Source: a virus (taxonomy: Duplodnaviria > Caudoviricetes). Taken from it: DNA of 53,827 nucleotides. The stretch spans positions 1 to 53,827 of IMG/VR virus record IMGVR_UViG_3300031694_000009. One strand, written 5' to 3'. The translations under genes and the position numbers were made by a program. Below the pieces are notes generated by a model. That model saw only the letters and a list, made by a program, of their open reading frames with translations, had not been told where the DNA came from and made no database searches. Of this stretch, positions 1-53,827 are shown in pieces (position 1 is the first letter of the stretch; every line of letters starts with the position of its first letter).

Positions 1-135
1 TAAATAATTAACCACCCCACCTCAGCGTAGGGTACAAGCCTTTTAACGCCGCAGCGGGCAAACGCGGCACGAGACAAAGAGATTAGCGTGGGAGCCACGG
101 TTGTCCACAAAGGCATTTTGCTATAAACTGGCTTT
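1..135. repeat. Terminal direct repeat (left copy); circular assembly overlap
   Basis: 1-135 equals 53693-53827 except position 9 (T vs G at 53701). Confidence 0.95.
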
Positions 136-3983: not shown

Positions 3984-4008
3984 GCCCGCTTAACAGCGGG
4001 CTTTTTTT
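3984..4008 (+). terminator. Rho-independent terminator
   Basis: GCCCGCT-TAAC-AGCGGGC + T7. Confidence 0.85.
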
Positions 4009-4010
4009 GC

Positions 4011-4091
4011 TTGCACTATCTTATAATATTCTATATCCTTCTATATGCGGTGGGCAAACAGCCGCTTAACTTAACTTTACGGAGTAACAAG
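4011..4091 (+). promoter_or_regulatory. early cassette leader: sigma70-type promoter, 5' hairpin and RBS
   Basis: TTGCAC-17-TATCCT; hairpin with GGGCAA in the loop; ACTTAACTTTACGGAG. Confidence 0.75.
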
Positions 4092-4289
4092 ATGACCATT
4101 GTAAAAAAGCCAGAAGACTTGAAAGAGCGGTTTGACTTAAAGATACTATCAAACTGCTGCGGTGGCCGCGTATACCTGCGGCTTTATAGCGACAATTTTG
4201 ATCGGGATCTAAACGCTTACATAGACGAGATAGACGTGCTTTGTAATAGATGCGGGTGCGAGTGTGAATACAGTGAGGAATCCCAATGA
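4092..4289 (+). CDS. small Cys-rich (Zn-ribbon-like) protein
   Basis: SNCCG...CNRC; start reassigned to ATG 4092 by GGAG RBS. Confidence 0.7.
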   Translation: MTIVKKPEDLKERFDLKILSNCCGGRVYLRLYSDNFDRDLNAYIDEIDVLCNRCGCECEYSEESQ

Positions 4290-4919: not shown

Positions 4920-4945
4920 GCCCGCTTGACTGCGGGCCTTTTTTT
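4920..4945 (+). terminator. Rho-independent terminator
   Basis: GCCCGC-loop-GCGGGC + T run. Confidence 0.8.
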
Positions 4946-4992
4946 ACCTAGAATATACGCTTTATCGCATATACAATATAAAGGGCAAAATT

Positions 4993-5697
4993 ATGTTAAA
5001 AACAGTAGAGAATAGCGCAGCAACAAAAACCAGAGGAATCGCGGTCACATATAGAGCGGGCAATAAAGAGATGTACGGGACCTGTCCCGCATCATGTGAG
5101 CTGAACTGCAGTGGCAAAGGATCGCAGAAAATAGATCACGACTATTTTGATGCACTACTTGCTGCAGTACCTAGGGGAGGGATATCTTTTACTTACACGC
5201 ATTTTGACTGGTTCAACTGGTGTGATAAAGCCAACAAAGAAACGACGGGCCAAACCGTGGTCAATTATTCGGCCAGTACTTTATCTAGCGCCGTGGTAGC
5301 TTCTCGCGTGGTCCCCACCGTCGTAGTAGTGGGGGAAGATCTTTGGGCGAACGGCAAAGTTTTCAGCACCGACGCCGTGCCAGTGGTTCGATGCCCCGCC
5401 GAATATAGGGAGAAGTTTTCTTGTGCAGACTGCGGTAATGGTATCCCCTTATGTGCCCGGCGAAACCGTGATTACATAATTGGCTTTACAGCGCATGGGT
5501 CAGGAAAGAAAAAAGCTGCGGATCCTGAAACGGTTGGCGGCTGTTATGCAGACGGTGGTCGCGTTCGACTGCATTGGAATGCCACGGCCAACAGTGACCA
5601 GAACACAGAAACCGACGGCGAAAAACTGAAACGGTTTGCTGAGGGCCTTCGAGCGGGCTCGATTATTCGTCATCATGTTGCGGGCGATATAGGGTAA
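4993..5697 (+). CDS. Cys-rich GP88-like phage protein
   Basis: TCPASC, FTYTH, VVNYSA, VRCPAE...CADCG...LCAR...IIGFTAHG, GGCYA motifs. Confidence 0.6.
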   Translation: MLKTVENSAATKTRGIAVTYRAGNKEMYGTCPASCELNCSGKGSQKIDHDYFDALLAAVPRGGISFTYTHFDWFNWCDKANKETTGQTVVNYSASTLSSAVVASRVVPTVVVVGEDLWANGKVFSTDAVPVVRCPAEYREKFSCADCGNGIPLCARRNRDYIIGFTAHGSGKKKAADPETVGGCYADGGRVRLHWNATANSDQNTETDGEKLKRFAEGLRAGSIIRHHVAGDIG

Positions 5698-5702
5698 GCG
5701 CC

Positions 5703-5792
5703 TTGTGTTATCTAATAATGTTCTATATCCTTCTATATAGCAGCGGGCAATTGCTGCTATAACTTTTAACTTAACTACTACGGAGTAACAAC
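5703..5792 (+). promoter_or_regulatory. early cassette leader: promoter, 5' hairpin and RBS
   Basis: TTGTGT-17-TATCCT; AGCAGC-GGGCAATT-GCTGCT; ACTTAACTACTACGGAG. Confidence 0.8.
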
Positions 5793-6221
5793 ATGACAGA
5801 TTTAAATATACGTGCAGCGGATCTTATACTTGATAGAGTTTTAAACCCCACCAAGGCGGCTGAACTTGGTGCCGCAAAACCTTCGGCCCTTGTTGAAGCT
5901 TGCGGTTTGATTCCTGACTTTTTTGCAGACGCATGCATCACACTTGCGCTTGGTGTGGAAGGCTCGACACAATCGGCATTGGATGATATCGCGGACCGAA
6001 TGGATGCCGTTTATGGGTGTGGCGGTTTTGGTTCCTACCCTTTCGACGGAACCCTTTCGAGTGATGGAACGTACGTGAGTCCGCATGAAGATGACGCAGA
6101 TTTGCCACCACTTTGTCGGTTTGGTTTTAAGGGCACATTCCATTGCTTTGTTTATCAGTACGGCATCACGGCAATCAGGGACAACACCACTGGAGAATTT
6201 AAGATAGCTCGATTCGACTAA
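5793..6221 (+). CDS. hypothetical early protein
   Basis: 142 aa; own leader and terminator. Confidence 0.8.
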   Translation: MTDLNIRAADLILDRVLNPTKAAELGAAKPSALVEACGLIPDFFADACITLALGVEGSTQSALDDIADRMDAVYGCGGFGSYPFDGTLSSDGTYVSPHEDDADLPPLCRFGFKGTFHCFVYQYGITAIRDNTTGEFKIARFD

Positions 6222-6238
6222 GTAAACCCACCCCAACG

Positions 6239-6268
6239 AAGGCCCGCTAAATAGCGGGCCTTTTCTTT
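6239..6268 (+). terminator. Rho-independent terminator
   Basis: AAGGCCCGCTA-AA-TAGCGGGCCTT + TTCTTT; identical to 6963. Confidence 0.85.
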
Positions 6269-6355
6269 GCCCTAATGCATAAACTTCTATATACTTCTAT
6301 ATAGCAGCGGGCAATTGCTGCTATAACTTTTAACTTAACTTTACGGAGTAACAAT
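6267..6355 (+). promoter_or_regulatory. early cassette leader: promoter, 5' hairpin and RBS
   Basis: TTGCCC-17-TATACT; ~56 bp near-identical to 5721-5776. Confidence 0.8.
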
Positions 6356-6943
6356 ATGAGTAACTTTATAGAACACCAAAAGCGCGAAGGAAACCAGTTT
6401 GTTGCATGGTCCTTACTAAATGAATCGGGCGAACCTGTGAAGGTCGGAACCATCTTTGTAAAAGATGGCCGCAGCTTTAAGATCACCGATGGCGCAGCAC
6501 CCAAGCACGAGGCCAGCACGGGGCGGGTTTATGGCGAATGGACCGATGGCGACAATACGCGGGAATATTTTCCCAACGTTTTCGACTGTAAATGGGTGAA
6601 GGTTGAGAAGTCTATTAAACTGGTCCAGCCCACCGTTGAGCCTGTCGACGCGTTCACCACTGCACTCACTGCGATGGTCCGCGATCTGGTAAAGGTGCAG
6701 CTTGTTGATGTAGTCCAAGCGACTATTGAACAACTGGCCACCGATGGCGAATTGAATGCGACATTCGAGGAAGTGATCAGCCAAACGCTAGACGACGGCG
6801 GCTACCTTAGCGCACATGAGTTTGATGTGTCGGATTATTTTGACGAGATCCGCGACGGTTTTAGCGAGGACATGCGCCGCGATGTTGAGAGCGTTATAAA
6901 AGAGATGATTCACGACGATAGCTTGGTGATCCGTCTAGTCTAA
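6356..6943 (+). CDS. hypothetical early protein with acidic C-terminal half
   Basis: N-terminal PKHEASTGRVY...EYFPNVF module then D/E-rich helical region. Confidence 0.8.
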   Translation: MSNFIEHQKREGNQFVAWSLLNESGEPVKVGTIFVKDGRSFKITDGAAPKHEASTGRVYGEWTDGDNTREYFPNVFDCKWVKVEKSIKLVQPTVEPVDAFTTALTAMVRDLVKVQLVDVVQATIEQLATDGELNATFEEVISQTLDDGGYLSAHEFDVSDYFDEIRDGFSEDMRRDVESVIKEMIHDDSLVIRLV

Positions 6944-6962: not shown

Positions 6963-6992
6963 AAGGCCCGCTAAATAGCGGGCCTTTTCTTT
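6963..6992 (+). terminator. Rho-independent terminator
   Basis: identical hairpin to 6239. Confidence 0.85.
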
Positions 6993-7072
6993 GCAATATT
7001 CTATAAACTTCTATATCCTTCTATATAGCAGTAAACAATTTACTGCGACAACTTAACAACGGAGTTAACAAC
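6991..7072 (+). promoter_or_regulatory. early cassette leader: promoter, 5' hairpin and RBS
   Basis: TTGCAA-17-TATCCT; GCAGTAAA-CAA-TTTACTGC; ACTTAACAACGGAG. Confidence 0.8.
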
Positions 7073-7360
7073 ATGGGCACAATCTACAACATGAAAACCC
7101 GCTCAGGTAATGCGGCCGCTAATCAGTTTATAAACACTGATGCAACTATCAACGGCGTACATGGCGAGCTGTTCCAGTCGTACAGCTCAAACATTGCGCT
7201 AAAACCTAGCGACGGAAGCACCGCAATACTAGATGCTAATTACTGGGATTACAGCGTTACAACGGGACAATATAGAAACGAGTTCCTTGGTGAAGGCATA
7301 GCAGAAACCCGCGACAAGATCGCCCAAGGCGCCTACTTGCTGCGAGATCTGAACAGCTAA
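7073..7360 (+). CDS. conserved phage hypothetical protein
   Basis: FQSYSSNIA...YWDYSVTTGQYRNEFLGE pattern. Confidence 0.8.
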   Translation: MGTIYNMKTRSGNAAANQFINTDATINGVHGELFQSYSSNIALKPSDGSTAILDANYWDYSVTTGQYRNEFLGEGIAETRDKIAQGAYLLRDLNS

Positions 7361-7377
7361 CACCACCCACCCCAACG

Positions 7378-7406
7378 AAGGCCCGCCATAGAGCGGGCCT
7401 TTTTTT
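7378..7406 (+). terminator. Rho-independent terminator ending the early array
   Basis: AAGGCCCGC-loop-GCGGGCCTT + T run. Confidence 0.85.
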
Positions 7407-7429
7407 ATGCCTGTTGTTTATAGCAGTTA

Positions 7430-22671: not shown

Positions 22672-25600
22672 ATGCCCAGTACCTATACAGTCAACCTCGG
22701 TATTGAAAAGCCGGCCACCGGTGAACAGTCGGGAGCGTGGGGCGATACCGTCAACGAAAACTCTAATATATTAGATGAGGCCATTAACGGCGTCGTTACA
22801 ATAACGCTCACCTCCGCGGGTTCGTCAGGCTCTCCCAACCAAATTGCCATCACTAACGGTTCCTCGTCTACAGGACGTAATAAATGGATCGAATTTGACG
22901 ACGGTGGGAATTTAGGCGCGTCGGCTTATGTGGAATTGATTCCAAACGACGCTGAAAAAATATGCTTTATCCGGAACAGCCTTTCGGCCAGTCAGTCTAT
23001 CTTCCTTTTCCAAGGTACTTATAGCGCAAGCAACGATCTTGAGATCGCGGCGGGCACTGACGTGGCGGTTAAGTTTAGCGGCACTGGAACAGGCGCGACC
23101 GTAGCAAACATCAACGCCAACTTGAAGGTTGACGGGATTGTTGCAACGACGGCTGACATTAATGGCGGCACAATAGATGCCACTGTAATAGGTGGTTCAA
23201 CCGCTGCGGCTGTCACAGGTACTACTGTTGTTGCAAACACCAGTGTTAATATTGCAGGTGACGGCGCGACCGTCACCGGGATAAAAGACGAAGACAACAT
23301 GGCGAGTAACTCCGCCGTCAAGCTTGCCACTCAGCAATCTATTAAGGCCTATGTTGACTCCCAAGTAGCTACCGTTGATACGCTTTCAGAAGTTCTTGCC
23401 ATTGGTAACACTTCAGGCAGCTCCGATATTGATATGGACGCGGCACAGAAAGTTCAGTTTCGCGATTCCGCCATCTACATAAACTCCAGTGTTGACGGGC
23501 AGCTAGACATTGTTGCCGACACTGAGATTCAAATTGCGGCCACTACGATTGACATTAACGGCGCTATTAACGCCAGCGGTGAGATCATTGCGGCTTCGCT
23601 AGATATTTCTGGCAACGTCGACATCGACGGAATTACTAATTTAGACGCTGTTGATATAGACGGCGCTGTTGATATAACGGGAACCTTGGACGTAACGGGT
23701 GACGTTACAGTGGGTGTTGACGGGACAGGTCATGACGTTAAGTTCTTCGGAGACACCTCTGGCAACTATGTTCTCTGGGACCAGTCTGCTGATGATTTGA
23801 TACTAGCCGGGACTTCCTCTCTTGCTGTTGGCGGCGACGCCGCTGTCACTGGAGACTTAGATGTCGACGGCACGATTGAATTTGATGCTTTATCGGGTAC
23901 TGGCTCAGTAGCAGTAACGGACATTAAAGACGAAGACAACATGGCTTCTGATAGCGCCACGGCGCTTGCCACCCAACAGTCTATTAAGGCTTACGTTGAC
24001 GCTCAAGTCGACACGGTTGACACACTTTCAGAAGTTCTTGCCATCGGCAATACCTCGGGAAGCACCGACATCAGCATGGACACTGCACAGAAAGTGCAGT
24101 TTCGCGATTCTGCTATCTACATTAACTCCAGCGTTGACGGTCAGCTCGACATTGTCGCAGACACTGAAATTCAGATAGCTGCCACTACGGTTGATATTAA
24201 TGGCGCAATTAATGCCAGTGGCGAAATAATTGCAGCCTCGCTAGACATCTCGGGCAACGTTGACATAGACGGGATTACTAATTTAGACGCCGTTGACATA
24301 GACGGTGCGGTTCAAATTGATGCCGCAGTAACCGTGGGTGTTGATGGGACGGGCCATGACGTTAAATTCTTTGGGGACACCTCGGGGAATTACGTACTTT
24401 GGGACCAGTCTGCTGACGATTTGATACTAGCCGGGACTTCCTCCCTTGTTGTAGGCGGAGACGCCTCGGTCACGGGAGACTTAGATGTTGACGGCACTAT
24501 TGAATTTGATGCTTTATCTGGCACAGGCTCAGTAACCGTCACGGACATTAAAGACGAAGACAACATGGCGTCTAACAGCGCCACTATGCTGGCTACGCAA
24601 CAGTCCATTAAGGCGTATGTAGACTCTGCCGCAGGCACAGACACGCTTGCTGCCGTCCTCGTCGAGGGCAACATAACGGGCGGCACGGATTTGGATTTCT
24701 CCATTGGCGATGACCTGACCACGTTGACCGCGGGCACCAGCAACTTCCGCGCAGGTGTTAACGCGGGTGCCAGCATTGCCTCGGGGGGTAACTACAACAC
24801 GCTGGTAGGCGATGGCGCCGGAACAGCTACCACCACAGGCGATGCCAACACGGCAAGCGGTTATAATGCTTTCTCGACTAACACCACCGGCGGCAACAAC
24901 GTCGCAATAGGCCATCAGGCTTTACGTGATAGCACCACGGCCCAGCAGAACACGGCCGTCGGCTCCAACGCTTTATCCTTGGCCACCACGGGCGGTTCGA
25001 ACACGGCAACCGGGTATTCTGCTTTAGCGGCCAACACTACGGGCGGTTCGAACACGGCCGTCGGTACGCAGGCGTTAACCACTAACACCACCGCATCGGC
25101 CAACGTCGCAATAGGCCATCAGGCTTTGGGCCTTAACACCACGGGCAGTTCTAGCGTAGCAACGGGTTATATCGCACTAGGTGCTAACACTACAGGTAGT
25201 AACAACACCGCAACAGGCTATCTGTCTTTAGGTGCTAACACTACGGGCACTAACAACACCGCAAGCGGCTATGAGGCGCTAAAAACCAACACCACCGCTT
25301 CTAACAACGTCGCAACCGGGTATTCTGCTTTAAACGCTAACACCGTGGGCGCTAACAACGTCGCCGTCGGAACGAACGCGTTAAAAGACAACACCACCGC
25401 TTCTTTCAACGTCGCCGTCGGCTATAGCGCGTTATCGGATAACACCACCGGGTATTACAACACCGCCCTCGGTTACGGAGCGTTAAAAGACAACACTACC
25501 GCTTCGGGCAACACCGCAATAGGTTATAACGCGTTATCGGATAACACTACAGGCGCGGGCAACACGGCAACCGGGTATTATGCCTTAGACGCTAACACCA

Positions 25601-27144
25601 CCGGCGCTAATAATACCGCCTTCGGCTATTTTTCCTTAGACGCTAACACGACTGGCTCTAGCAACATAGCAATCGGTACCTTTTCGTTATCTGCTAACAC
25701 TACAGGTGTTCAGAACACCGCAGTCGGTATTCAGGCGTTACTAGTCAACACCACGGGCGCTAACAACGTAGCCATCGGAGCGCAATCTTTACAGGCCAAC
25801 ACTACAGGTTCTTACAACGTAGGCACGGGCACGGGTGCGCTAGCCGCGAACACCACGGGCGCTAGCAACGTAGCCATCGGAACGCAATCTTTACAGGCCA
25901 ACACTACAGGCTATTCCAACGTAGCAATGGGCGCACAGTCGCTAACCGCCAATACCACGGGCACTGACAATACAGCAGTCGGCGCGATATCTCTGCAAAC
26001 CAACACTACAGGCTATTACAACGTAGGGGTAGGCAGAAGCACGTTAAATGCTAACACGACAGGCGTTCAGAACACGGCAGTCGGTACGTTGGCTATGGGC
26101 GCGAACACTACGGGCAATAACAACGCGGCCTTCGGGTGTTATGCTTTAGACGCAGCCACGACAGCGAGTAATAACACCGCAGTTGGCTATGGTGCGTTAA
26201 GTGCTAATACTACCGCCCCCAACAACACCGCAGTTGGCTATCTCGCATTAAACGTTAACACTACAGGTGATAACAACGTAGCAATTGGCGTGAACGCCTC
26301 AAGACTTGCCACCACTGCTTATGCCAACATAGCGGTTGGCAGAAATGCCTTAGAAAGCCACACCACGGGGCATAGCAACGTAGCAGTGGGCTACCGCGCT
26401 ATGGCGCTTAGCACCACAGGATTCTACAATGTAGCAATCGGGAGGGATGCTATGGATGCTGCCACCACTGCCACTAGGGCGGTAGCGGTAGGCAACGGCG
26501 CATTAGGGGTCTTGACCACGGGGCATTACAATACAGCAGTTGGTGAGGTGTGCTTACAGAGTCTTACTACTGGACAGTACAATACGTCAGTAGGTAGATC
26601 AGGCGCAAGCAACCTAGTAACAGGAAGCTACAACACCTGCCTAGGCTATTACGCAAGGCCGGGCTCAACCTCTACCAGTAACGCGGTGGTACTCGGGTAC
26701 TATGTGTCAGGCAGCGCGAACTACACCACATTAGGGGACAGCGGGTCGGACATTAGAGCAGCACACGGTAGTACAACATGGTCTACGGTGTCGGATATAA
26801 GGTATAAAAAAGACATTACCGACTCGACAGCAGGGCTTGATTTTGTAAATGCCCTACGCCCAAGGACTTGGAAATACAAGACGCTAGGCGACCTGCCTGA
26901 AACCTTTAGTGCTTATAAAAAGGGCTCAACGGAAGTATTTAAAAATACCCAAACAAACCACGGGTTTATAGCGCAAGAAGTTAAATCGGCAATTGAGGCG
27001 GACGATAGCCTCAAAGACGGTTTTAAACTATGGGATGACCGTGAAGACGGTTCTCAAGAAGTAGCAGAAGCGGCGCTAATACCTGTATTAGTCAAAGCAA
27101 TCCAAGAGCTAACCGCTCGTTTAACAATCTTAGAAGGAAGCTAA
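22672..27144 (+). CDS. tail fibre/spike with internal duplication, 14-aa solenoid repeats and C-terminal S74 chaperone
   Basis: ATGEQSGAWG anchor; repeats at 23281/23923/24547; NTTGxxNxAxGxxAL repeats; SDIRYKKDI...GFIAQEV...LVKAIQEL. Confidence 0.9.
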   Translation: MPSTYTVNLGIEKPATGEQSGAWGDTVNENSNILDEAINGVVTITLTSAGSSGSPNQIAITNGSSSTGRNKWIEFDDGGNLGASAYVELIPNDAEKICFIRNSLSASQSIFLFQGTYSASNDLEIAAGTDVAVKFSGTGTGATVANINANLKVDGIVATTADINGGTIDATVIGGSTAAAVTGTTVVANTSVNIAGDGATVTGIKDEDNMASNSAVKLATQQSIKAYVDSQVATVDTLSEVLAIGNTSGSSDIDMDAAQKVQFRDSAIYINSSVDGQLDIVADTEIQIAATTIDINGAINASGEIIAASLDISGNVDIDGITNLDAVDIDGAVDITGTLDVTGDVTVGVDGTGHDVKFFGDTSGNYVLWDQSADDLILAGTSSLAVGGDAAVTGDLDVDGTIEFDALSGTGSVAVTDIKDEDNMASDSATALATQQSIKAYVDAQVDTVDTLSEVLAIGNTSGSTDISMDTAQKVQFRDSAIYINSSVDGQLDIVADTEIQIAATTVDINGAINASGEIIAASLDISGNVDIDGITNLDAVDIDGAVQIDAAVTVGVDGTGHDVKFFGDTSGNYVLWDQSADDLILAGTSSLVVGGDASVTGDLDVDGTIEFDALSGTGSVTVTDIKDEDNMASNSATMLATQQSIKAYVDSAAGTDTLAAVLVEGNITGGTDLDFSIGDDLTTLTAGTSNFRAGVNAGASIASGGNYNTLVGDGAGTATTTGDANTASGYNAFSTNTTGGNNVAIGHQALRDSTTAQQNTAVGSNALSLATTGGSNTATGYSALAANTTGGSNTAVGTQALTTNTTASANVAIGHQALGLNTTGSSSVATGYIALGANTTGSNNTATGYLSLGANTTGTNNTASGYEALKTNTTASNNVATGYSALNANTVGANNVAVGTNALKDNTTASFNVAVGYSALSDNTTGYYNTALGYGALKDNTTASGNTAIGYNALSDNTTGAGNTATGYYALDANTTGANNTAFGYFSLDANTTGSSNIAIGTFSLSANTTGVQNTAVGIQALLVNTTGANNVAIGAQSLQANTTGSYNVGTGTGALAANTTGASNVAIGTQSLQANTTGYSNVAMGAQSLTANTTGTDNTAVGAISLQTNTTGYYNVGVGRSTLNANTTGVQNTAVGTLAMGANTTGNNNAAFGCYALDAATTASNNTAVGYGALSANTTAPNNTAVGYLALNVNTTGDNNVAIGVNASRLATTAYANIAVGRNALESHTTGHSNVAVGYRAMALSTTGFYNVAIGRDAMDAATTATRAVAVGNGALGVLTTGHYNTAVGEVCLQSLTTGQYNTSVGRSGASNLVTGSYNTCLGYYARPGSTSTSNAVVLGYYVSGSANYTTLGDSGSDIRAAHGSTTWSTVSDIRYKKDITDSTAGLDFVNALRPRTWKYKTLGDLPETFSAYKKGSTEVFKNTQTNHGFIAQEVKSAIEADDSLKDGFKLWDDREDGSQEVAEAALIPVLVKAIQELTARLTILEGS

Positions 27145-44671: not shown

Positions 44672-44689
44672 CCGCATGGGGGGCAGGTA

Positions 44690-46228
44690 ATGTCGTTAGA
44701 TAAGTTTATGGGCATCTTTGAAGGCCTGAAAGTAGCACACGGCTACTTCAAAATAGAAAAGACAGGAGCAAATGGTAAAGCTCAAGGTAAAGCAGGCGTT
44801 CTTCGCGAACCACAGACGCCAAAGCTGTGGGAAGACCACTTAACCGGTACGGGCAGCGGTCTTGGTATCGTACCCATCAACGAAGAGAACAGTTGCAAAT
44901 GGGGCTGTATTGACATAGACCAGTACCCCCTCGATCACAAACTATTGGTGGATAAGATCCGCCGTATGAAATTACCCCTTGTTGTGTGCCGGTCTAAGTC
45001 GGGTGGCGCCCACTGCTTCCTATTCACCACCGCGTGGACCGAAGCCCGGGACATGCAGAAAGCTCTTCAATCCATGGCAGCCGCATTAGGCTACGGTGAG
45101 AGCGAGATTTTCCCGAAACAAATAAAGCTTAATTTAGACCGCGGAGACGTCGGTAACTTTCTTAACCTGCCTTACTACAACCACGAAGAAGGGCTACGTT
45201 ACGCCTTCTTGGATGATGGCACCTCCGCCACGCTAGACGAGTTCATTGCACTCCACAAACAGTACGCTCAAACACCCGAAGAAGTTGTTAAGATACAAGT
45301 CGTCGGGGCGAGTGAGACAAAACTGCTTCAAGATGGTCCACCTTGCCTACAAATACTCTGCAAGCAGGGTATTAGCGAGGGAGGACGTAATAATGGTTTA
45401 TTCAATATTGGTGTTTACCTGCGGAAAGCCTTCCCCGACAGTTGGGAGTCAGAAATCCTTCGGTACAACATGGACTATATCTCCCCACCCCTCCCTCTTG
45501 GTGAGGTGAACGTTGTTGCCAAACAGGTAGAGCGAAAAGAGTACGCCTACAAATGCTCTGACGCCCCCATCAACTCCCACTGCAACAAAGACCTTTGCCG
45601 TACACGTAAGTTCGGGATTGGTGCTGCTATTGCAGGGGCCACCATCGCTAACCTTCGTAAGTATAACTCCACGCCACCGGTTTGGTTCATGGACGTGAAT
45701 GGCGAACCTTTGGAGATGGACACGGATGCGCTAATGAACCAGATGACCTTTCAGAAGGCTTGTATGGAGCAACTTAACTTCATGCCAAGGTCCGTAGCCA
45801 AGCAACAGTGGGAGAGCCGTATAAGCACCCTTCTCAGCGAGATGAAGGAGAACGAAAGCGCCATTATAGAGGTAGCGGTTGACGCCAGTACAAGCGGACA
45901 GTTTTATGACTACCTTGAAGAGTTTTGCCGCCACCTACAGGTTGCGCAGGACAAAGAAGAAATACTGCTGCGGCGTCCTTGGACGGATGAAGAGCAGGGC
46001 CTTACCTACTTCCGTCTGAAAGACTTCGAGAACTTCCTAAAGAAGAATAAGTTCTTTGAATACAAGTCTCACCGAATTGCTCAACGCCTACGTGACATCA
46101 ATGGCTTAAGTGTTGTTCTAAAGATCAAAGGACGCGCTGTTCGCGTTTGGAAGATACCTTCCTTCAACACGGCAGACATTGATATCGATACACCTAAGTT
46201 TGGTGACCATTCAGGAGCTGCTTTCTAA
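44690..46228 (+). CDS. AEP-type primase with PriCT-like domain
   Basis: WGCIDID, RSKSGGAH, GNFLNLPY, PPCL...EGGRNN. Confidence 0.85.
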   Translation: MSLDKFMGIFEGLKVAHGYFKIEKTGANGKAQGKAGVLREPQTPKLWEDHLTGTGSGLGIVPINEENSCKWGCIDIDQYPLDHKLLVDKIRRMKLPLVVCRSKSGGAHCFLFTTAWTEARDMQKALQSMAAALGYGESEIFPKQIKLNLDRGDVGNFLNLPYYNHEEGLRYAFLDDGTSATLDEFIALHKQYAQTPEEVVKIQVVGASETKLLQDGPPCLQILCKQGISEGGRNNGLFNIGVYLRKAFPDSWESEILRYNMDYISPPLPLGEVNVVAKQVERKEYAYKCSDAPINSHCNKDLCRTRKFGIGAAIAGATIANLRKYNSTPPVWFMDVNGEPLEMDTDALMNQMTFQKACMEQLNFMPRSVAKQQWESRISTLLSEMKENESAIIEVAVDASTSGQFYDYLEEFCRHLQVAQDKEEILLRRPWTDEEQGLTYFRLKDFENFLKKNKFFEYKSHRIAQRLRDINGLSVVLKIKGRAVRVWKIPSFNTADIDIDTPKFGDHSGAAF

Positions 46229-46395
46229 TGGCTGACAAAATAACTTTGGAAGAATGGATTAAAAGCCGCAATACCATGATCGTCAAAATGATTGACGAGG
46301 ATCGTATGACCATGACCGCCGTCGCCCGGTGGTTTTCTATCTCCAAGCAGCGTGTTAAACAGGTCTACGACAGGGAGAAAGAGAAAGATGTTTAG
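46228..46395 (+). CDS. 55-aa HTH protein (...MTAVARWFSISKQRVKQVY...), below cutoff
   Basis: Hand translation; HTH pattern; coupled to both neighbours. Confidence 0.7.
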   Translation: MADKITLEEWIKSRNTMIVKMIDEDRMTMTAVARWFSISKQRVKQVYDREKEKDV

Positions 46396-47905
46396 GATCT
46401 TTGGGCCCCCGGGAACAGGCAAGACCACCACGCTGTTAAACATGGTCGATGACGCCTTAGAAGCGGGCACACACCCGCACCGCATAGCCTTCCTAGCATT
46501 TACGCGCAAGGCAGCAACCGAAGCCAAAGAACGAGCGGCTGAACGTTTTAATCTCAACCCCAAAACAGACTTAATCTACTTCCGTACACTTCATTCTCTC
46601 GCCCTGACGATGACGGACATTAGGCCCGAACAAGTGATGCAAGAGGCCCACTTCCGAGAGTTGAGTCGGTCAATAGGTGTCACGCTCGGCGGATCAAAAG
46701 CAGGCAGCTTCGACGACGACATACCTTCTATGGTTGCCAGTAACGATCCCGTTCTCGGACTGATCAACCTAGCTCGCTTGAGACAGGTATCGCTGCGAGA
46801 CCAGTACAACCATAGCGACATCGACAGTGACTGGAACACCGTCAATTACGTGGACAAGTGTCTCCGTGAATACAAAGACAGTATGGGTCTGTACGACTTC
46901 ACCGACATGTTGGCGGAGTTCGTTAAAGGCTCCGACGTGTTCTGCCCCGAGTTCGACCTGTGCTTCCTAGACGAGGCGCAGGACTTAAGTCCACTGCAAT
47001 GGGAACTGGCTCACGCTATCGATGGTCACTCCAAGCGTATGTACTGTGCCGGAGACGACGACCAAGCTATCTATCGATGGGCGGGTGCCGATGTGGATCA
47101 CTTCATTAACTTGCCGGGCGGGTCTGAAACATTGTCTCAGTCCTACCGTATACCTAAACTGGTTCACAGCCTCGCGGAGAGTGTCGTGCGTCGTATTACA
47201 CGTCGTTTCCCCAAGAGCTACGAGCCAAAAAAAGAATTAGGTAACGTGACGCGGATTAATAGTATCGCGGCACTAGACATGTCCGAAGGGTCATGGCTAA
47301 TATTAGCGCAAGCGGGTTATCACCTACAGCCCGTGGCGAGTGACCTCAAGTCGAGCGGACACCTGTTCAACTACCGCGGACATCGGAGCATTAGCGAGAA
47401 GCTGTCCGACGCGGTCAACGGTTGGGAGCAGCTGCGCAAAGGCAAAGAGATCACCGGGGAAGTTGCTCGGAAGATATACAGCTTTATGTCGACAGGGACA
47501 CGTGTGGTCCGGGGCTATAAAAAGCTAACAGGCCTCGATGATCACGACCTGATCACCATGGGTACCTTAGTTGACAGCTACGGCTTGAAAGCGGATAAGA
47601 CAATGATCTGGTCCGAAGCCATGGACAAACTCCCGGAGACAGATCGAGCCTATATCACGGCACTGTTACGGCGGGGCGAGAAGTTTAATGGCATACCCCG
47701 TATTACGGCGTCCACGATCCACGGATCAAAAGGGGGAGAGGCGGATAACGTTGTGTTGTTCACGGACCTAAGCCCGGCCGCCGATAACGAGATGAGACTT
47801 AATCCAGATGATATGCACCGCGTGTTTTACGTAGGTTTAACACGCACGAAACAAAACCTATTTATTGTTGATGCCGAAGATGTGACGAGGAGTTACGAAT
47901 TATGA
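46388..47905 (+). CDS. UvrD/Rep-like SF1 helicase
   Basis: GPPGTGKT, LDEAQD, GDDDQAIY, QSYR, TIHGSKGGE, FYVGLTR. Confidence 0.95.
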   Translation: MFRIFGPPGTGKTTTLLNMVDDALEAGTHPHRIAFLAFTRKAATEAKERAAERFNLNPKTDLIYFRTLHSLALTMTDIRPEQVMQEAHFRELSRSIGVTLGGSKAGSFDDDIPSMVASNDPVLGLINLARLRQVSLRDQYNHSDIDSDWNTVNYVDKCLREYKDSMGLYDFTDMLAEFVKGSDVFCPEFDLCFLDEAQDLSPLQWELAHAIDGHSKRMYCAGDDDQAIYRWAGADVDHFINLPGGSETLSQSYRIPKLVHSLAESVVRRITRRFPKSYEPKKELGNVTRINSIAALDMSEGSWLILAQAGYHLQPVASDLKSSGHLFNYRGHRSISEKLSDAVNGWEQLRKGKEITGEVARKIYSFMSTGTRVVRGYKKLTGLDDHDLITMGTLVDSYGLKADKTMIWSEAMDKLPETDRAYITALLRRGEKFNGIPRITASTIHGSKGGEADNVVLFTDLSPAADNEMRLNPDDMHRVFYVGLTRTKQNLFIVDAEDVTRSYEL

Positions 47906-48937: not shown

Positions 48938-49218
48938 GCAAAAAGACTGAGTTCAAGGGTATCAAATACCCTGTTATCAAAAACGTAGTGGATCCCATGG
49001 TTGACCAGCCGAGCCACTATGCCAACAGCGACATAGAATGTATTGACGCAATGGTTGCAGCCTTCGGACAAGATAAGGTTAATACCTATGCCGCGATAGC
49101 TGCCTTTAAATACATCTGGCGTATGGACAAAAAAAGTATTGAGTCCACGCAAGATAAACAAAAAGCCGTTTGGTACTTACGGTATTCAATGGGCGACGAC
49201 CCGAGGATTAAAAAATGA
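48934..49218 (+). CDS. DUF3310 family protein (T7 gp1.7-like nucleotide kinase domain)
   Basis: VDQPSHY...IECIDAM...KYIWR...K...QD..KAVWYL. Confidence 0.85.
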   Translation: MSKKTEFKGIKYPVIKNVVDPMVDQPSHYANSDIECIDAMVAAFGQDKVNTYAAIAAFKYIWRMDKKSIESTQDKQKAVWYLRYSMGDDPRIKK

Positions 49219-51107
49219 GTTTACAAATGGCGATGTTTGCGAGAAAGAATGAGTGGGTTCCACCTTTAGAACTACCCGACATTACCGGTGCGTCTAAAAT
49301 TGCAATCGACGTGGAAACACGCGACCCGAACCTTAAGAACAGTGGCCCGGGTTGGCCAACAGGCGACGGGGAAGTGGTTGGTTACGCTGTCGCAATCGAC
49401 GGCTGGTCTTGCTATATACCTATCCGTCACTTCGGGGGCGGTAACCTTGACGAGAAAATCGTCAACCGGTGGCTTAAGAAAGTATTCGAGTGTCCTGCAG
49501 ATAAGATCATGCACAACGCACAATATGACTTGGGTTGGATTAAACAAATGGGGTTCACGGTCAACGGACGTATTATCGATACCATGATCGTCGCCTCACT
49601 GCTTGATGAAAACCGTTTTAGTTACAGTTTGAATGCGCTTTGTTACGATGTACTTAACAAAACGAAGTCGGAGAAAGCGTTAGTCGAGGCTGCCCGGGAG
49701 TTCGGAGTCGATCCCAAAGCTGAGATGTGGAAGATGCCCGCTATGTATGTCGGACCATATGCTGAAGCGGACGCAGAGCTTACCCTTGAACTCTGGAATT
49801 ACTTTTCCGTTAAGATAGGCCAAGAGGACTTGTGGAGCATCGTTAATCTCGAGCTTGACTTGCTGCCATGTCTCGTCGACATGACTATGCGAGGCGTCCG
49901 AGTCGACGTCAACCGGGTAGAGCGAACTAGGGACAGCCTCCTTAAAAGGGAGCGGGATGTCTTGAAGGAGTTGAAGCGAGTCGCGGGCCCGGGCGTTGAA
50001 ATCTGGGCGGCTCAATCGCTTGCAAAGTCCTTCGACAATCTCGGAATCCAATACCCAAAGACCGAGAAAGGCGCACCGTCCTTCACTAAACTCTTCCTGC
50101 AAGAGCATGATCACCCCGTCGCGAAGCTCATCGTCGAGGCGCGGAATCTGAACAAAACATCCGGGACCTTCATCAACTCCATCATGAAACACTGCCACGC
50201 TGATGGTCGAATACATAGTCATGTTAATCAACTCCGGTCTGATGATGGGGGAACTGTGTCGGGACGCATTTCAATGCGCAACCCTAACTTACAGCAAATT
50301 CCGGCGCGAGATCCTATTTATGGACCTATGATTCGTTCACTATTCCTGCCAGAAGAAGGAGACCAGTGGGCGGCGATTGACTTCTCGCAACAAGAACCAC
50401 GGATCTTGGTACATTATGCACATGTATACGGTAAAACGCGAGGAATACCACTAGAGGGTGCGGCGGACTTCGTTACCGCCTATAACGAGAAACCGGAAAC
50501 AGACTTCCATAGTCTAGTGGCCGAGATGGCCAAAATTCCCCGGAAACAGGCCAAGACAATTAACTTGGGTTTGATTTATGGCATGGGTGTTAATAAATTG
50601 GCGGCAGAGCTCGACACCTCCGTCGAGGAAGCCAAGGGCTTGGTCAAGCAATACCACGCCCGCGTACCTTTTGTTAAAGGACTAATGACCGGGGTGATGA
50701 ACCGCCTAAACGATAAGACTTCGGGGGGTGCGTTACGTTCCCTAGAAGGAAGGAAGTGTCGTTTTGATATGTGGGAACCCGATACGTTTGCCATGAACAA
50801 AGCTATGTCGTACAAAGAAGCGGTTGCGGCCTACGGACCAACGACCAGACTCAAACGAGCGTTTACCTATAAAGCACTCAACAGGCTCATCCAAGCATCT
50901 GCCGCGGACATGACTAAGAAAGCAATGGTCAATCTTTATAAGATGGGAAAACTCCCCATGCTGCAGATCCATGATGAACTGGCGATGTCGGTAAAGAACC
51001 TTGAGGAAGCTCAAGAGGTTGCACGGGTAATGGAAAGTGCGGTGCCTTTAGAAGTCCCCAACGTTTGCGACGTGGAAATAGGCCCTTCGTGGGGAGAAGC
51101 GAAATAA
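49215..51107 (+). CDS. polA: family A DNA polymerase with 3'-5' exonuclease
   Basis: DVET/HNAQYD/YAEAD exo motifs; DFSQQEPR motif A, RKQAKTINLGLIYG motif B, QIHDEL motif C. Confidence 0.95.
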   Translation: MSLQMAMFARKNEWVPPLELPDITGASKIAIDVETRDPNLKNSGPGWPTGDGEVVGYAVAIDGWSCYIPIRHFGGGNLDEKIVNRWLKKVFECPADKIMHNAQYDLGWIKQMGFTVNGRIIDTMIVASLLDENRFSYSLNALCYDVLNKTKSEKALVEAAREFGVDPKAEMWKMPAMYVGPYAEADAELTLELWNYFSVKIGQEDLWSIVNLELDLLPCLVDMTMRGVRVDVNRVERTRDSLLKRERDVLKELKRVAGPGVEIWAAQSLAKSFDNLGIQYPKTEKGAPSFTKLFLQEHDHPVAKLIVEARNLNKTSGTFINSIMKHCHADGRIHSHVNQLRSDDGGTVSGRISMRNPNLQQIPARDPIYGPMIRSLFLPEEGDQWAAIDFSQQEPRILVHYAHVYGKTRGIPLEGAADFVTAYNEKPETDFHSLVAEMAKIPRKQAKTINLGLIYGMGVNKLAAELDTSVEEAKGLVKQYHARVPFVKGLMTGVMNRLNDKTSGGALRSLEGRKCRFDMWEPDTFAMNKAMSYKEAVAAYGPTTRLKRAFTYKALNRLIQASAADMTKKAMVNLYKMGKLPMLQIHDELAMSVKNLEEAQEVARVMESAVPLEVPNVCDVEIGPSWGEAK

Positions 51108-51169: not shown

Positions 51170-51385
51170 ATGGATACAACACGTTGGAAAAGCATCCTCG
51201 TACCGCGAACCGTGTACGAAGAAATTAAAGAACTGTCAAAAGCCGAAGGCCGTACAATCGGTGGGCAATTACGCCTTGTTTTTGACTGGTATAAAGAAGA
51301 GCAAGGGGGAAGTAATGCCGCTAGAAAGCAAAGAGCCGGGGGAAATACACAAAAGACTGGTAATAAACCAGTGTCCAAAGTGTAA
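51170..51385 (+). CDS. ribbon-helix-helix-like regulator
   Basis: WKSILVP..VYEEIKELSKAEGRTIGGQL; GGAGAG RBS before ATG 51170. Confidence 0.65.
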   Translation: MDTTRWKSILVPRTVYEEIKELSKAEGRTIGGQLRLVFDWYKEEQGGSNAARKQRAGGNTQKTGNKPVSKV

Positions 51386-51506
51386 ATGCACCCTCGATAT
51401 AATTGAAAAAACGGTAGAGACGTTAGTCCGGCGGTGTGGCGCCTGCCGACTCACGATCTCCGACCAGATTGCGGGAGCCGAGTTCCCAATAAGTGTATGC
51501 GATTAA
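51315..51506 (+). CDS. small Zn-ribbon protein
   Basis: CPKC...CGAC; GGGGGA RBS before ATG 51315. Confidence 0.6.
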   Translation: MPLESKEPGEIHKRLVINQCPKCKCTLDIIEKTVETLVRRCGACRLTISDQIAGAEFPISVCD

Positions 51507-51509
51507 GTG

Positions 51510-51537
51510 TTGCTTATCCCATATCACTGTGTATAAT
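51510..51537 (+). promoter_or_regulatory. sigma70-type promoter of the putative sRNA
   Basis: TTGCTT-16-TATAAT; flanked by TATGCGAT/ATCCCATA boxes. Confidence 0.7.
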
Positions 51538-51543
51538 GATACC

Positions 51544-51616
51544 GAGCATGGCAACATGTTCTCCGTAGTTAAGTACCGCCCCGAACTCGGTTGCCCCCGA
51601 GCCGGGGCATTTTTTT
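51544..51616 (+). ncRNA. putative trans-acting antisense sRNA against early-gene leaders
   Basis: promoter, GNRA-capped 5' hairpin, CTCCGTAGTTAAGT linker, terminator with TTGCCC loop and T7 tail; no ORF inside. Confidence 0.7.
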
Positions 51617-51628
51617 ATAAGGAGAGTA

Positions 51629-51841
51629 ATGATGGATAAGATTTTTATAAATGGTCTGATGGCCAAGAAGCCAAACGACAATTCCCCTGAATGGGTTAAG
51701 TGCAATATTAGTATAAAGCGCGAAGAACTTATTGGGTGGCTAACCGAACAAACAGATGAGTGGATCAACGCCCAAGTTTGTGAAAGCAAAGGCGGAAAAT
51801 GGTATGCGGAGGTCGACACGTGGAAGCCGACAAACGGGTAG
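51629..51841 (+). CDS. conserved small phage protein
   Basis: KIFINGL..K.P....PEWVK...ESKGGKWYAEVDTWKP; AAGGAG RBS. Confidence 0.8.
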   Translation: MMDKIFINGLMAKKPNDNSPEWVKCNISIKREELIGWLTEQTDEWINAQVCESKGGKWYAEVDTWKPTNG

Positions 51842-53560: not shown

Positions 53561-53695
53561 ATGAAAAAACTTACAATCATTAGACATAAATTTGTCGGAA
53601 TCGGCGTTGGATGGGAAAAATATAGAAATGGTTATGCCATCACAATATCGCTACCACTGCTGGCGGTTTGCATAATGGTGGGCGACTGGCGGTAA
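53561..53695 (+). CDS. 44-aa hydrophobic peptide, below cutoff
   Basis: Hand translation MKKLTIIRHKFVGIGVGWEKY...; AAAGG RBS. Confidence 0.55.
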   Translation: MKKLTIIRHKFVGIGVGWEKYRNGYAITISLPLLAVCIMVGDWR

Positions 53696-53827
53696 ATAAT
53701 GAACCACCCCACCTCAGCGTAGGGTACAAGCCTTTTAACGCCGCAGCGGGCAAACGCGGCACGAGACAAAGAGATTAGCGTGGGAGCCACGGTTGTCCAC
53801 AAAGGCATTTTGCTATAAACTGGCTTT
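53693..53827. repeat. Terminal direct repeat (right copy)
   Basis: matches 1-135 with one mismatch. Confidence 0.95.

Follow-up and report, generated by a model that had tools for sequence, protein, structure and literature searches.

A candidate antisense RNA of an uncultured marine phage may contact the phage's own leaders through an anti-Shine-Dalgarno seed and a terminator hexaloop

Positions 51,544 to 51,616 (+ strand) of the window, i.e., the whole stretch of 53,827 nucleotides of phage DNA analyzed here, appear to encode a trans-acting antisense RNA of ~72 nt that reads as an antisense mirror of the modular leaders of the same phage. This candidate small RNA (sRNA) would expose two elements: a seed, CUCCGUAG(U..), and the hexaloop of its terminator, UUGCCC. 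The leaders seem to offer the complements in matching order, first GGGCAA and then CUACGGAG, which contains the Shine-Dalgarno (SD) sequence. GGGCAA would be displayed in the six-base loop that caps a hairpin at the extreme 5' end of the mRNA or, for some genes, in the spacer between SD and AUG. Pairing of the seed would cover the ribosome-binding site and thereby block translation, and a 6-bp loop-loop ('kissing') helix would form a separate second contact, which may allow faster docking and add specificity for the phage's own leaders. We regard this two-site antisense repressor, with its seed on the SD and its loop kiss, as the best explanation of the data and, taken as a whole, as moderately probable. 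The window comprises the complete genome (~53.7 kb) of an uncultured marine phage.

The putative sRNA promoter consists of TTGCTT (51,510–51,515) and TATAAT (51,532–51,537) on the + strand, separated by a 16-nt spacer. It is absent from the list produced by a consensus promoter scan of the window, because its -35 hexamer fits at only 3/6 positions. This -35 is spanned by an inverted repeat that was read from the sequence of the same strand (TATGCGAT at 51,496–51,503 and ATCCCATA at 51,516–51,523) and represents a possible operator. Relatives share the layout of the repeat (TATGCGAT-N12-ATCGCATA or ATCCCATA) and also retain the block TTGCTTATCCCATA with a -10-like hexamer. The start of the RNA is placed by its distance from the -10 and its end by the U-run. 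Folding of the RNA (51,545–51,616; 72 nt) predicts a 5' hairpin and a terminator joined by a largely unpaired middle, at -25.9 kcal/mol (z -2.76; 3 of 200 shuffles are as stable). The predicted 5' hairpin (ACAUG/GCAA/CAUGU; 51,546–51,559, + strand) has arms that change jointly in relatives, for instance to GUGAC/GUCAC, UGCAG/CUGCA or GAGG/CCUC in an alignment read by eye. A minus-strand reading of the locus as a leader with a 44-aa ORF (51,423–51,557) was rejected: its ATG falls inside this covarying hairpin and is lost in relatives. The single-stranded anti-SD seed, CUCCGUAGUUAAGU (51,561–51,574, + strand), is delineated by conservation and by complementarity to the leaders. Its columns C19–T27 (numbering of the first alignment row) are either invariant or conserved to at least 90% among 45 sequences, and it is complementary to (C/U)UACGGAG at positions 2227, 2582, 4077, 5778 and 6341.

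A covariance model of the element, R1, has one sole match in the window, at 51,544..51,616 (75.6 bits; E = 1.6e-15). No Rfam family reaches its gathering score anywhere in the window, and the best Rfam scores around the sRNA element are 8.8–13.6 bits against cut-offs of 37–57.6. Comparison of the sRNA region with catalogued phages by DNA similarity gave no match. The best cultured relatives, as judged from the DNA polymerase protein, are DSL-LC04 (57% identity) and HTVC023P (50%), and R1 finds nothing in either of them at E up to 0.1. The sRNA and the leader cassettes are kept in well over 100 environmental contigs of the phage group, and the relatives that were compared have polymerase identities of 78–93%.

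The terminator hairpin (51,578–51,608, + strand) comprises an outer stem (51,578–51,583/51,603–51,608), an inner stem (51,586–51,590/51,597–51,601) and, as the central element of this study, the hexaloop UUGCCC (51,591–51,596). The original prediction spelled the hairpin as GCCCCG-AA-CTCGG-[TTGCCC]-CCGAG-C-CGGGGC; the letters are exactly so, and seven T residues follow in the DNA, giving the U-run (51,610–51,616, + strand). The loop is exactly TTGCCC in 42 of 45 distinct sRNA homologues; in the model-based alignment, 36 of 39 genuine distinct rows have it. The stems underneath covary: 93.1% of the cells are paired, compensatory changes are present at 8 of the 11 pairs, and covariation scores 0.437 compared to 0.161 in shuffles (0 of 500 as high) and at most 0.098 in slid controls. 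Even the loop-closing pair differs across homologues (GC 33, CG 7, AU 4). A broader scan for loop variants, based on the promoter box plus the seed pattern, retrieved 108 new loci, of which 61 have TTGCCC, one has ATGCCC and six belong to a divergent clade, the rest being chance pattern matches. Variant sRNA loops are AUGCCC in L005, L008 and L272 (a terminator scan for this variant gave five contigs, none of which reaches a leader, L272 having been found later) and a different loop in L061; these four contigs are too short and come without leaders. The comparative data thus support the terminator loop as a selected, sequence-specific element. Second, weak R1 matches in three contigs (L049, L050 and L092) correspond to the polymerase terminator and were discarded as second sRNAs.

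In the window, three leaders on the + strand hold GGGCAA within a 5' hairpin that begins ~7 nt past a -10-like hexamer. The first (4047–4094) has its hairpin at 4047–4065 with GGGCAA (4052–4057) in the loop, UACGGAG at 4078–4084 and the ATG at 4092. The second (5739–5795) has its hairpin at 5739–5758, GGGCAA at 5745–5750, UACGGAG at 5779–5785 and the ATG at 5793, and the third (6303–6358) is a duplicate of the second, with its hairpin at 6303–6322, GGGCAA at 6309–6314, UACGGAG at 6342–6348 and the ATG at 6356. The hexamer had been predicted to occupy the hairpin loop in all three. It does lie within the hairpins at 4052, 5745 and 6309, but in their minimum free energy fold the 5739 and 6303 leaders form 8 bp of stem capped by a GCAA tetraloop, with GG wobble-paired to UU, so that the hexamer is only partly exposed in these two copies. 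Kissing at these two leaders would require the opening of two G.U pairs. In addition, the copies at 5745 and 6309 are not independent, because both are part of a duplicated module (families D5, D7 and D12). Two other + strand leaders have no loop match and might, purely speculatively, be under the graded control that was proposed for them: 7028–7075 (5' hairpin with a CAA loop, AACGGAG at 7058–7064, ATG at 7073) and 2206–2246 (5' hairpin with the loop AAUUAA, UACGGAG at 2228–2234, ATG at 2244).

Three further start sites on the + strand carry one of the two sequences outside a 5' hairpin. CUACGGAG occurs at 2582–2589 ahead of ATG 2599 of a phrog_1362 gene, without a hairpin (2582–2601). As predicted originally, GGGCAA is found just before ATG 4993 of a DUF7227 gene (4983–4995), where it occupies 4983–4988 in the spacer, 4 nt ahead of the start and in no hairpin. 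GGGCAG lies 3 nt ahead of the primase ATG at 44,690 (44,681–44,692) and could pair with UUGCCC via one G.U. Six copies of UACGGAG are present on the + strand between 2228 and 6342; five precede a gene ATG by 7–9 nt, and no clear start follows the sixth (3803). Among the hexamers preceding 1543 distinct starts of the relatives, ACGGAG ranks first (n = 156; 27.7-fold). The remaining GGGCAA site that had been proposed as a hairpin loop, at position 56, does sit in the 11-nt loop of a 5-bp hairpin, though one of unremarkable stability (z -0.54), and it falls in the 135-bp terminal repeat instead of in a leader. Together with the two GCAA-tetraloop copies, it weakens the five-site list put forward at first. 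Across the whole window and both strands, GGGCAA is not enriched (30 observed compared to 35.8 +/- 7.0 expected); the case therefore rests on context, not on count.

The relatives supply such a context and make the case much stronger. GGGCAA is the commonest loop (n = 55) among 999 distinct hairpin modules located at most 60 nt upstream of an SD-ATG, followed by TTGACT (n = 15). The 67 modules of the GGCAA/GGGCA type display 30 different 5' stem arms and are positioned ~7 nt past a TATAAT-like -10, ahead of CUACGGAG or CUAUGGAG. Of 875 distinct contexts of GGGCAA, 127 place it in a hairpin loop closed by a stem of 5 bp or more, compared to 0.3–3.2% for 12 control hexamers. On the gene-sense strand, 159 hairpins with a GGGCAA loop are found as opposed to 13 with a TTGCCC loop, a strand bias that hints at an RNA feature rather than a DNA feature. 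The two partners also co-occur in the same genomes: when loci with an sRNA and at least 7 kb of downstream sequence are considered (n = 20), 14 have a leader with a GGGCA[AG]-loop 5' hairpin, in the other six the motif is confined to a start site, and no locus is without it. The divergent clades (G001–G003) keep the seed but have neither UUGCCC as terminator loop nor GGGCAA as leader hairpin loop. The two loops thus show joint conservation and joint absence but no compensatory change, and both patterns could reflect one evolutionary event. Two variants keep pairing through G.U, namely GGGCAG in a leader (L119) and CUAUGGAG at the SD. A loop match is not obligatory, since some leaders carry a GGGCCG loop, and two contigs (L111 and L112) combine an UUGCCC sRNA with leader hairpins that have other loops. 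A GGGCAT-loop leader occurs as a single case in leader context (L024, upstream of an RHH-like gene), with an UUGCCC sRNA.

A fixed loop on variable stems is the classic mark of hairpins that are recognized by proteins, such as lambda boxB and the MS2 operator. The GGGCAA hexaloop might hence be a protein site, either for N/boxB-like or put-like antitermination or for a translational or stability factor, with the sRNA loop competing for it or serving another partner and loop-loop pairing not being the main role. Antitermination would make sense for leader units that are arranged in tandem and are each closed by an intrinsic terminator, and the GCAA in the window fold is a GNRA-type tetraloop. 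Terminator loops are, moreover, described as having effects without direct pairing in SdsR, RseX and ArrS (PMC11979758). Nonetheless, we deem a protein site unlikely, as it explains neither the exact complement and equal conservation of the sRNA loop nor the order of the two sites, which mirrors the leader. The ORFs near the sRNA yield only sub-threshold RHH and zinc-ribbon hints and no candidate RNA-binding protein, and GGGCAA is also present without structure in SD-AUG spacers.

These unstructured copies may, alternatively, be the real targets of the loop (DUF7227 at 4983, primase at 44,681 and GGGGGCAACC in L111). The loop would then act as a second seed that blocks the ribosome, and the hairpin copies would be secondary. 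The start sites of the relatives lend this some weight. GGGCAA, which ranks 20th of all hexamers in the interval -15..-1 of the 1543 distinct starts, is the first one that is not SD-like (40 observed compared to 9.6 expected). Of 43 distinct DUF7227 starts, 33 have GGGCAA at most 7 nt from the ATG, and of 24 distinct primase starts, 13 have GGGCA[AG] at such a distance. The leaders of L111 and L123 read GGGGGCAACC-ATG, which complements 10 nt made up of the sRNA loop and flanking bases. However, the DUF7227 motif lies 3' of the seed target and overlaps it by one base; this order is opposite to that in the sRNA, so both sites cannot pair there in a simple collinear way. The same motif may be a mere part of a conserved ribosome-binding module, and in 5 of the 24 primase starts it is replaced by GGGGGCAC. 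Start sites as the real targets are therefore distinctly unlikely in our view, and they are compatible with, not exclusive of, the two-site repressor.

The pairing sites of the two-site repressor are collinear and antiparallel, as had been claimed: the order of the loop pair and the seed-SD pair mirrors the leader, and R1 matches the reverse complements of leaders (~20 weak minus-strand matches, E = 0.002–0.09, of which 13 were matched to leader-module coordinates). The proposal that pairing zips from the loop onto the SD is not supported, since the intervening 20–30 nt are not complementary to the sRNA. With only 6 nt and a separate seed complementary, no zipping is expected and at most two separate helices can form. 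By our own reasoning, exact complementarity of two independently conserved hexaloops is unlikely to arise by chance (~1 in 4096). Actual pairing of the loops is presumed, as are repression as the direction of control and its timing. The predicted energy of the 6-bp loop helix is ~-8.5 kcal/mol, and the predicted gain from seed pairing is ~14 kcal/mol on the four main leaders of the window; the second site is not needed energetically, because the seed alone gives a stable duplex. Co-evolution of the seed flanks was considered and found unconvincing, as cognate and non-cognate sRNA-leader pairs differ little in their pairing fractions (e.g., 0.56 vs 0.39 at -1 and 0.44 vs 0.37 at +10), with duplex energies of -17.1 vs -15.7. 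Agreement of the sRNA loop and the leader loop in their closing pairs was likewise dismissed as a rule, having been seen in one clade only. Single cases of extended seed pairing are striking: L129 shows a perfect match of 16 nt, and G003 combines CUCCGUGUAG with ACACGGAG.

The resemblance of the sRNA to a reverse-complemented leader also invites the view that it arose as an inverted leader copy and that the loop match is a functionless relic of descent or chance, in line with the lack of window-wide enrichment of the hexamer. Over the polymerase identities covered by the relatives, however, the stems beside both loops have diverged and covary and the loops are fixed, whereas neutral relics should decay as fast as stems. 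We consider a relic highly improbable.

Downstream of the terminator, an ORF (51,629–51,841) starts with an SD at 51,620, 4 nt past the U-run, and an ATG at 51,629. No promoter follows the terminator, so this ORF must be expressed by read-through. Its 70-aa product belongs to no family; the nearest named lead in the atlas is an Enc34 ssDNA-binding protein (score 0.82), to be read as a lead only. The terminator must be leaky, given that the next ORF lacks its own promoter and that the U-runs of several relatives are poor or interrupted. One metatranscriptome run matched, with 0.05 of the words, and it contains one 233-nt contig that stems from a relative, is <90% identical and spans from before the promoter over the terminator into the next gene; this contig shows neither ends nor strand. 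The element could accordingly act mainly in cis, as a leader or attenuator for the ORF that follows, with the short transcript as a by-product and the loop kept for termination or for a read-through factor. The layout is identical in all relatives, the RNA contig bridges the terminator, and, as read from the sequence, the downstream SD contains GGAGAG, to which UUCUCC in the seed could pair. Yet the conserved GUAGU beyond the CUCC of the seed has no complement near that SD and matches many distant leaders, and the seed variant CUCUGUAG (L036 clade) retains an AGGAG SD downstream. Other phage terminators have other loops (TTGACT, TAAATA), which argues that UUGCCC is not needed for termination. 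Attenuation in cis is thus quite improbable. That the sRNA of the two-site repressor exists as a discrete species is presumed.

According to the account in PMC12197685, there are few cases in which a phage regulates its own genes by a trans-acting sRNA, and the majority of those known come from temperate phages and have one gene as their target. The comparative data presented here suggest a single RNA together with a family of leader cassettes. Tentatively, a widespread clade of marine phages may possess its own post-transcriptional regulon governed by a 'two-key' riboregulator, in which an anti-SD seed is combined with a hexaloop kiss and the loop may also reach the starts of primase and DUF7227; if true, such a loop contact would link early-gene shut-off to replication control. 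The two-site repressor, if correct, would provide a compact natural case of kissing-loop specificity on top of an anti-SD seed, and would extend terminator loops as conserved recognition elements beyond enterobacterial sRNAs. It would also be a ready test case, as both loops are exact, swappable hexamers, and the combination of seed, loop and leader cassette would serve as a marker for regulon annotation in marine viromes.

Among the closest known systems is OxyS-fhlA of E. coli, in which translation is repressed through two contacts, one of them a kissing complex with the terminator loop (PMC11979758, citing Argaman and Altuvia 2000). The proposed sRNA likewise would act in trans through two separate contacts, one via its terminator loop, as far as that account describes OxyS. 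Complementary sequences are present in loops of both RNAs, narrowed to GCAA at 5739 and 6303, and the collinear seed/SD pair would provide a second, separate contact on the same target. OxyS, however, belongs to the stress sRNAs of the host, with a single such target and a second site in the coding region. The RNA considered here is phage-encoded; the loop that it would meet is carried by 5'-terminal hairpins of many leaders, and a linear seed directed at the SD would make the other contact. The absence of an Rfam match gives no sequence relation to OxyS. The element also shares parts of the layout of enterobacterial Hfq-type trans-acting sRNAs, with a Rho-independent terminator and U-tail (the U-run being weak in some relatives) and a conserved unpaired seed complementary to several mRNAs near the ribosome-binding site. 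The c4 RNA of P1/P7 is a ~77-nt phage RNA that acts in trans on the icd-ant leader around the ribosome-binding site, through short complementary stretches that are thought to be displayed in loops (PMC12197685). Both are phage-encoded RNAs with the phage's own mRNA as (proposed) target and short stretches of complementarity, in so far as c4 is characterized in that source. Nonetheless, c4 serves one operon and immunity in a temperate phage, whereas here many monocistronic leader modules are addressed and no lysogeny genes are seen near the element; neither the c4 model nor any other Rfam model shows homology at gathering score in the window. Recognition that begins at complementary hairpin loops is well known from CopA-CopT (R1), RNAI-RNAII (ColE1) and TAR-TAR*, and fully paired loops of 6–7 nt are sterically possible. 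The plasmid antisense RNAs are cis-encoded and fully complementary, and their kissing can spread into a long duplex, as opposed to 6 nt plus a separate seed here. The phage endoribonuclease RegB of T4 silences a set of the phage's own mRNAs via GGAG in the Shine-Dalgarno; it is a protein that cuts RNA, whereas an RNA cover over the Shine-Dalgarno is proposed here. Finally, lambda N-boxB and HK022 put provide conserved-loop hairpins near the 5' end of early transcripts, but the leader loop described here differs from these in being a hexaloop whose complement is conserved in a second RNA.

The terminator of the sRNA, a candidate RNA of about 72 nt at 51544-51616 (+), reads exactly as in the original prediction and folds as drawn there, with UUGCCC (51591-51596) as its loop; the fold energy of the sRNA is -25.9 kcal/mol (z -2.76). 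The complementarity of this loop to the GGGCAA of leader hairpins is confirmed. A promoter-like TTGCTT, 16 nt, TATAAT (51510-51537) lies upstream of the terminator, and the sRNA further comprises a small 5' hairpin (51546-51559) and an unpaired stretch CUCCGUAGUUAAGU (51561-74). An inverted repeat overlaps its promoter and an RHH-like gene adjoins. Directly upstream, two small ORFs overlap: 51170-51385 gives a sub-threshold ribbon-helix-helix match (RHH_5; E 0.005, 17 bits vs a cut-off of 26), and 51315-51506 carries a zinc-ribbon-like CxxC...CxxC pattern. The RHH-like gene is kept in relatives, its end falls inside the inverted repeat, and its product may act as a transcriptional regulator of the sRNA. 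Our guess on sRNA timing takes into account that the gene stands at the end of the replication block, with its promoter under the inverted repeat beside the RHH-like gene. The next ORF, at 51629, lacks its own promoter. Some transcription must therefore pass the terminator, and the RNA of this locus may be both a leader and the source of the sRNA. A purely cis-acting attenuator would account for this layout, but it leaves the loop and the GUAGU part of the seed unexplained and is considered improbable. The sole expression datum is one 233-nt contig of a relative from a marine metatranscriptome (run X1), which bridges 51479-51705, its ends and strand not being resolvable and its origin possibly DNA. 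This contig has a GTA insert after 51564, giving CUCCGUAGUAGUU, which is perfectly complementary to the leader variant AACUACUACGGAG (5773-5785); a 3-nt difference among leader copies thus has a counterpart among sRNA variants. Rfam contains no family for the sRNA element.

A 135-bp direct repeat occupies the termini of the window (1-135 and 53693-53827, 99% identical), which is an entire phage genome of ~53.7 kb, either terminally redundant or with an assembly overlap; the completeness estimate of the virus record is 94%. Catalogued phages give no nucleotide match to it. Compared by polymerase protein, DSL-LC04 (57%) and the Pelagibacter phages HTVC023P and HTVC027P (50%) come closest among named phages, and polymerase relatives are encoded in at least 600 IMG/VR stretches, the best 80 of which are 78-93% identical. 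Nearly all genes lie on the + strand. A terminase small-subunit-like gene comes first, then a cluster of small genes (about 1.7-7.4 kb). Beyond these lie the terminase large subunit and structural genes; the replication block follows, with a helicase on the - strand, a primase (44690-46228), a helicase (46352-47905) and a family-A DNA polymerase (49215-51107). Near-identical intrinsic terminators (GCCCGC-loop-GCGGGC-T run; repeat families D8 and D9) occur at 3984-4010, 4920-4946, 6242-6268, 6966-6992 and 7381-7407, some preceded by a conserved box CCCCAACGAAG. As every small-gene unit is closed by its own terminator, the region is a tandem array of monocistronic promoter-leader-gene-terminator cassettes. 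Elsewhere, a 1490-aa ORF (22672-27144) contains an extended series of tandem repeats with a 51-nt (17-residue) unit; a 43-nt core recurs 27 times at 60-84% identity, and there are larger duplications of 624-642 nt. The product resembles a repetitive fibre or surface protein.

In most relatives, a homologous sRNA element lies downstream of the polymerase. When 45 distinct copies are aligned, the columns that are invariant or at least 90% conserved are those of the seed (C-UCCGUAG-U) and the loop (UUGCCC); variation falls in the stretch that separates the two, in the 5' hairpin and in the stems of the terminator. The terminator is recovered by RNAalifold, with compensatory changes in 8 of 11 pairs (the loop-closing pair is GC in 33 copies, CG in seven and AU in four), 93.1% of the cells of the named terminator structure are paired, and the covariation score is 0.437 vs 0.161 in shuffles (0/500 reach it) and at most 0.098 with partners slid. 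Stems that decay and covary beside fixed loops contradict a neutral relic, which we regard as highly improbable. Of the 45 copies, 42 have precisely TTGCCC in the loop, two (L005, L008) carry ATGCCC and one (L061) has another loop. A covariance model built from this alignment finds a single strong + strand match in 51 of 81 polymerase-set sources, the window's only match among them, and a strong match in 24 of 89 further sources. TTGCCC occurs in 36 of the 39 genuine distinct rows of the model-based alignment; a 40th row was a spurious polymerase terminator and no second sRNA. A pattern scan of the relatives added 61 TTGCCC copies and one ATGCCC copy, and no other loop variant.

On the target side, the word GGGCAA itself is not enriched in the window (30 on both strands vs 35.8 expected). 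Its copies at 4052, 5745 and 6309 do lie inside hairpins, which begin ~7 nt past a -10-like hexamer, i.e., where the mRNA is predicted to begin, and are followed by ..ACUUAACU..UACGGAG, 7 nt and ATG. These leader modules are repeats of one another (families D5, D7 and D12). The hairpins at 5745 and 6309 are identical, and in their minimum free energy fold the stem grows by two G.U pairs, which reduces the loop to a GCAA tetraloop, so the hexamer is less exposed than originally assumed. The copy at 56 sits in a hairpin, albeit a weak one in the terminal repeat and not in a leader; that at 4983 stands 4 nt before ATG 4993 as described, and is unstructured there. In the leader promoters of the window, the -10 and the start site are spanned by a tandem direct repeat, TTCTATAT(A/C)CTTCTATAT (4027-4046, 5719-5738, 6283-6302 and 7007-7026). 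Most relatives have TTATCGCATATAATC(G/C)CATA in the same place, two copies of a ATCGCATA box that also makes up the inverted repeat at the sRNA promoter.

Across 160 loci plus the window, hairpins (stem of at least 5 bp, at least three G-C pairs, at most 60 nt upstream of an SD-ATG) yielded 999 distinct modules. The most frequent loop is GGGCAA (n = 55), followed by TTGACT (n = 15) and TGAC (n = 14), which belong to upstream terminators. The 67 rows with a GGCAA/GGGCA loop have 30 different 5' arms (e.g., GACGGC, CCGGGC, CCGCGG, AAGGCAGC, TGGGGC), and these hairpins start ~7 nt after a TTTACT..TATAAT-type promoter, ahead of CUACGGAG or CUAUGGAG. GGGCAA is found in a hairpin loop (stem of at least 5 bp) in 14.5% (127/875) of its distinct contexts, vs 0.3-3.2% for 12 control hexamers. 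The gene-sense strand has 159 GGGCAA-loop hairpins vs 13 with TTGCCC, a strand-specific feature, as RNA would be. A protein reading the hairpin in a boxB-like manner would account for this target side but leaves the equally conserved complementary sRNA loop unexplained, and is an unlikely alternative to RNA pairing. On the minus strand, the covariance model gives ~20 weak matches (E 0.002-0.09), 13 of them assigned to leader modules; formally, the sRNA is therefore a reverse-complement look-alike of a leader. A conserved MSE.. gene absent from the window also has a GGGCAA-loop 5' hairpin (L129, L014, L119, L132), and the match between its SD region and the cognate sRNA seed extends over 12 nt, or 16 nt in L129 (sRNA 5746-5818, leader downstream).

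The motif also occurs at start sites. GGGCAA stands 2-5 nt ahead of the DUF7227 ATG in 33 of 43 distinct starts in relatives, often as CUACGGAGGGCAAACC-AUG (window copy at 4983; start region, 4983-4995), and GGGCA[AG] 2-5 nt before the primase ATG in 13 of 24 (window motif GGGCAG, 44681-44686; start region, 44681-44692). The sRNA loop may act directly on both starts, and this would connect the sRNA with replication. Among hexamers at -15 to -1 of 1543 distinct ORF starts in relatives, ACGGAG ranks first (n = 156, 27.7-fold over background), above AAGGAG and AGGAGA. The usual anti-SD does not account for its AC before GGAG, which suits the sRNA seed; ACGGAG also resembles an A-N-GGA CsrA-type site. 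GGGCAA comes 20th (n = 40, 4.2-fold), ahead of every other hexamer without SD likeness. Two relatives (L111, L123) have a start reading GGGGGCAACC-AUG, which is complementary over 10 nt to the sRNA loop plus its flanks. Given such open start sites, the loop may serve as a second seed there as well as on hairpin loops.

Among 20 loci in which the sRNA is followed by at least 7 kb of sequence, 14 carry one or more leaders with a GGGCA[AG]-loop 5' hairpin, six have the motif only beside a start codon, and none is without it. Leader variants GGGCAG and CUAUGGAG retain pairing via G.U. Counter-cases exist: L111 and L112 combine a UUGCCC sRNA with other loops on both visible hairpin leaders, and GGGCCG leader loops are also found. 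Every contig with a variant sRNA loop ends before the leaders, and seed-flank pairing in bulk differs only slightly between cognate and non-cognate pairs. In one relative (G003), the seed is CUCCGUGUAG and two leaders read ACACGGAG; here, the putative seed and its predicted target have changed in step. Divergent contigs retain the seed, with differing terminator loops and leader hairpin loops AUGGU, GAUUUAC and AAUUAA. In G001 and G002, the seed is displayed in a 5' hairpin loop (GUGC-UCCGUAG-GCAC), not as a linear stretch. This clade comprises L162-L164 (the G001/G002 contigs), L179, L209, L230, L255 and L275. Its terminator loop differs (e.g., UUAGACUAU), its leaders keep UACGGAG, and it possibly uses a different second site, sRNA GUGGU / GGUAA against the 3' arm of the leader hairpin.

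The best reading is a trans-acting antisense RNA that would make two contacts, through its seed and its hexaloop. The seed would cover the Shine-Dalgarno of the leader, from which we infer repression; the cofolding gain is ~14 kcal/mol on the leaders at 4047, 5739, 6303 and 7027 and ~10-11 on those at 2205 and 2570. The hexaloops would add a helix of their own, 6 bp long and worth about -8.5 kcal/mol. The originally proposed zipping from the loop onto the SD is unlikely because the stretch between both sites is not complementary. That interpretation is supported in part: the second recognition site very probably has a function, with GGGCAA as its probable partner. A kissing contact on the 5' hairpin loop is the favoured, still hypothetical, reading. 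Full-text literature searches listed no paper describing the sRNA element. The geometry proposed here for the phage sRNA is that of OxyS-fhlA, in which the sRNA terminator loop kisses its target (PMC11979758), or that of the c4 RNA of P1/P7 (PMC12197685).
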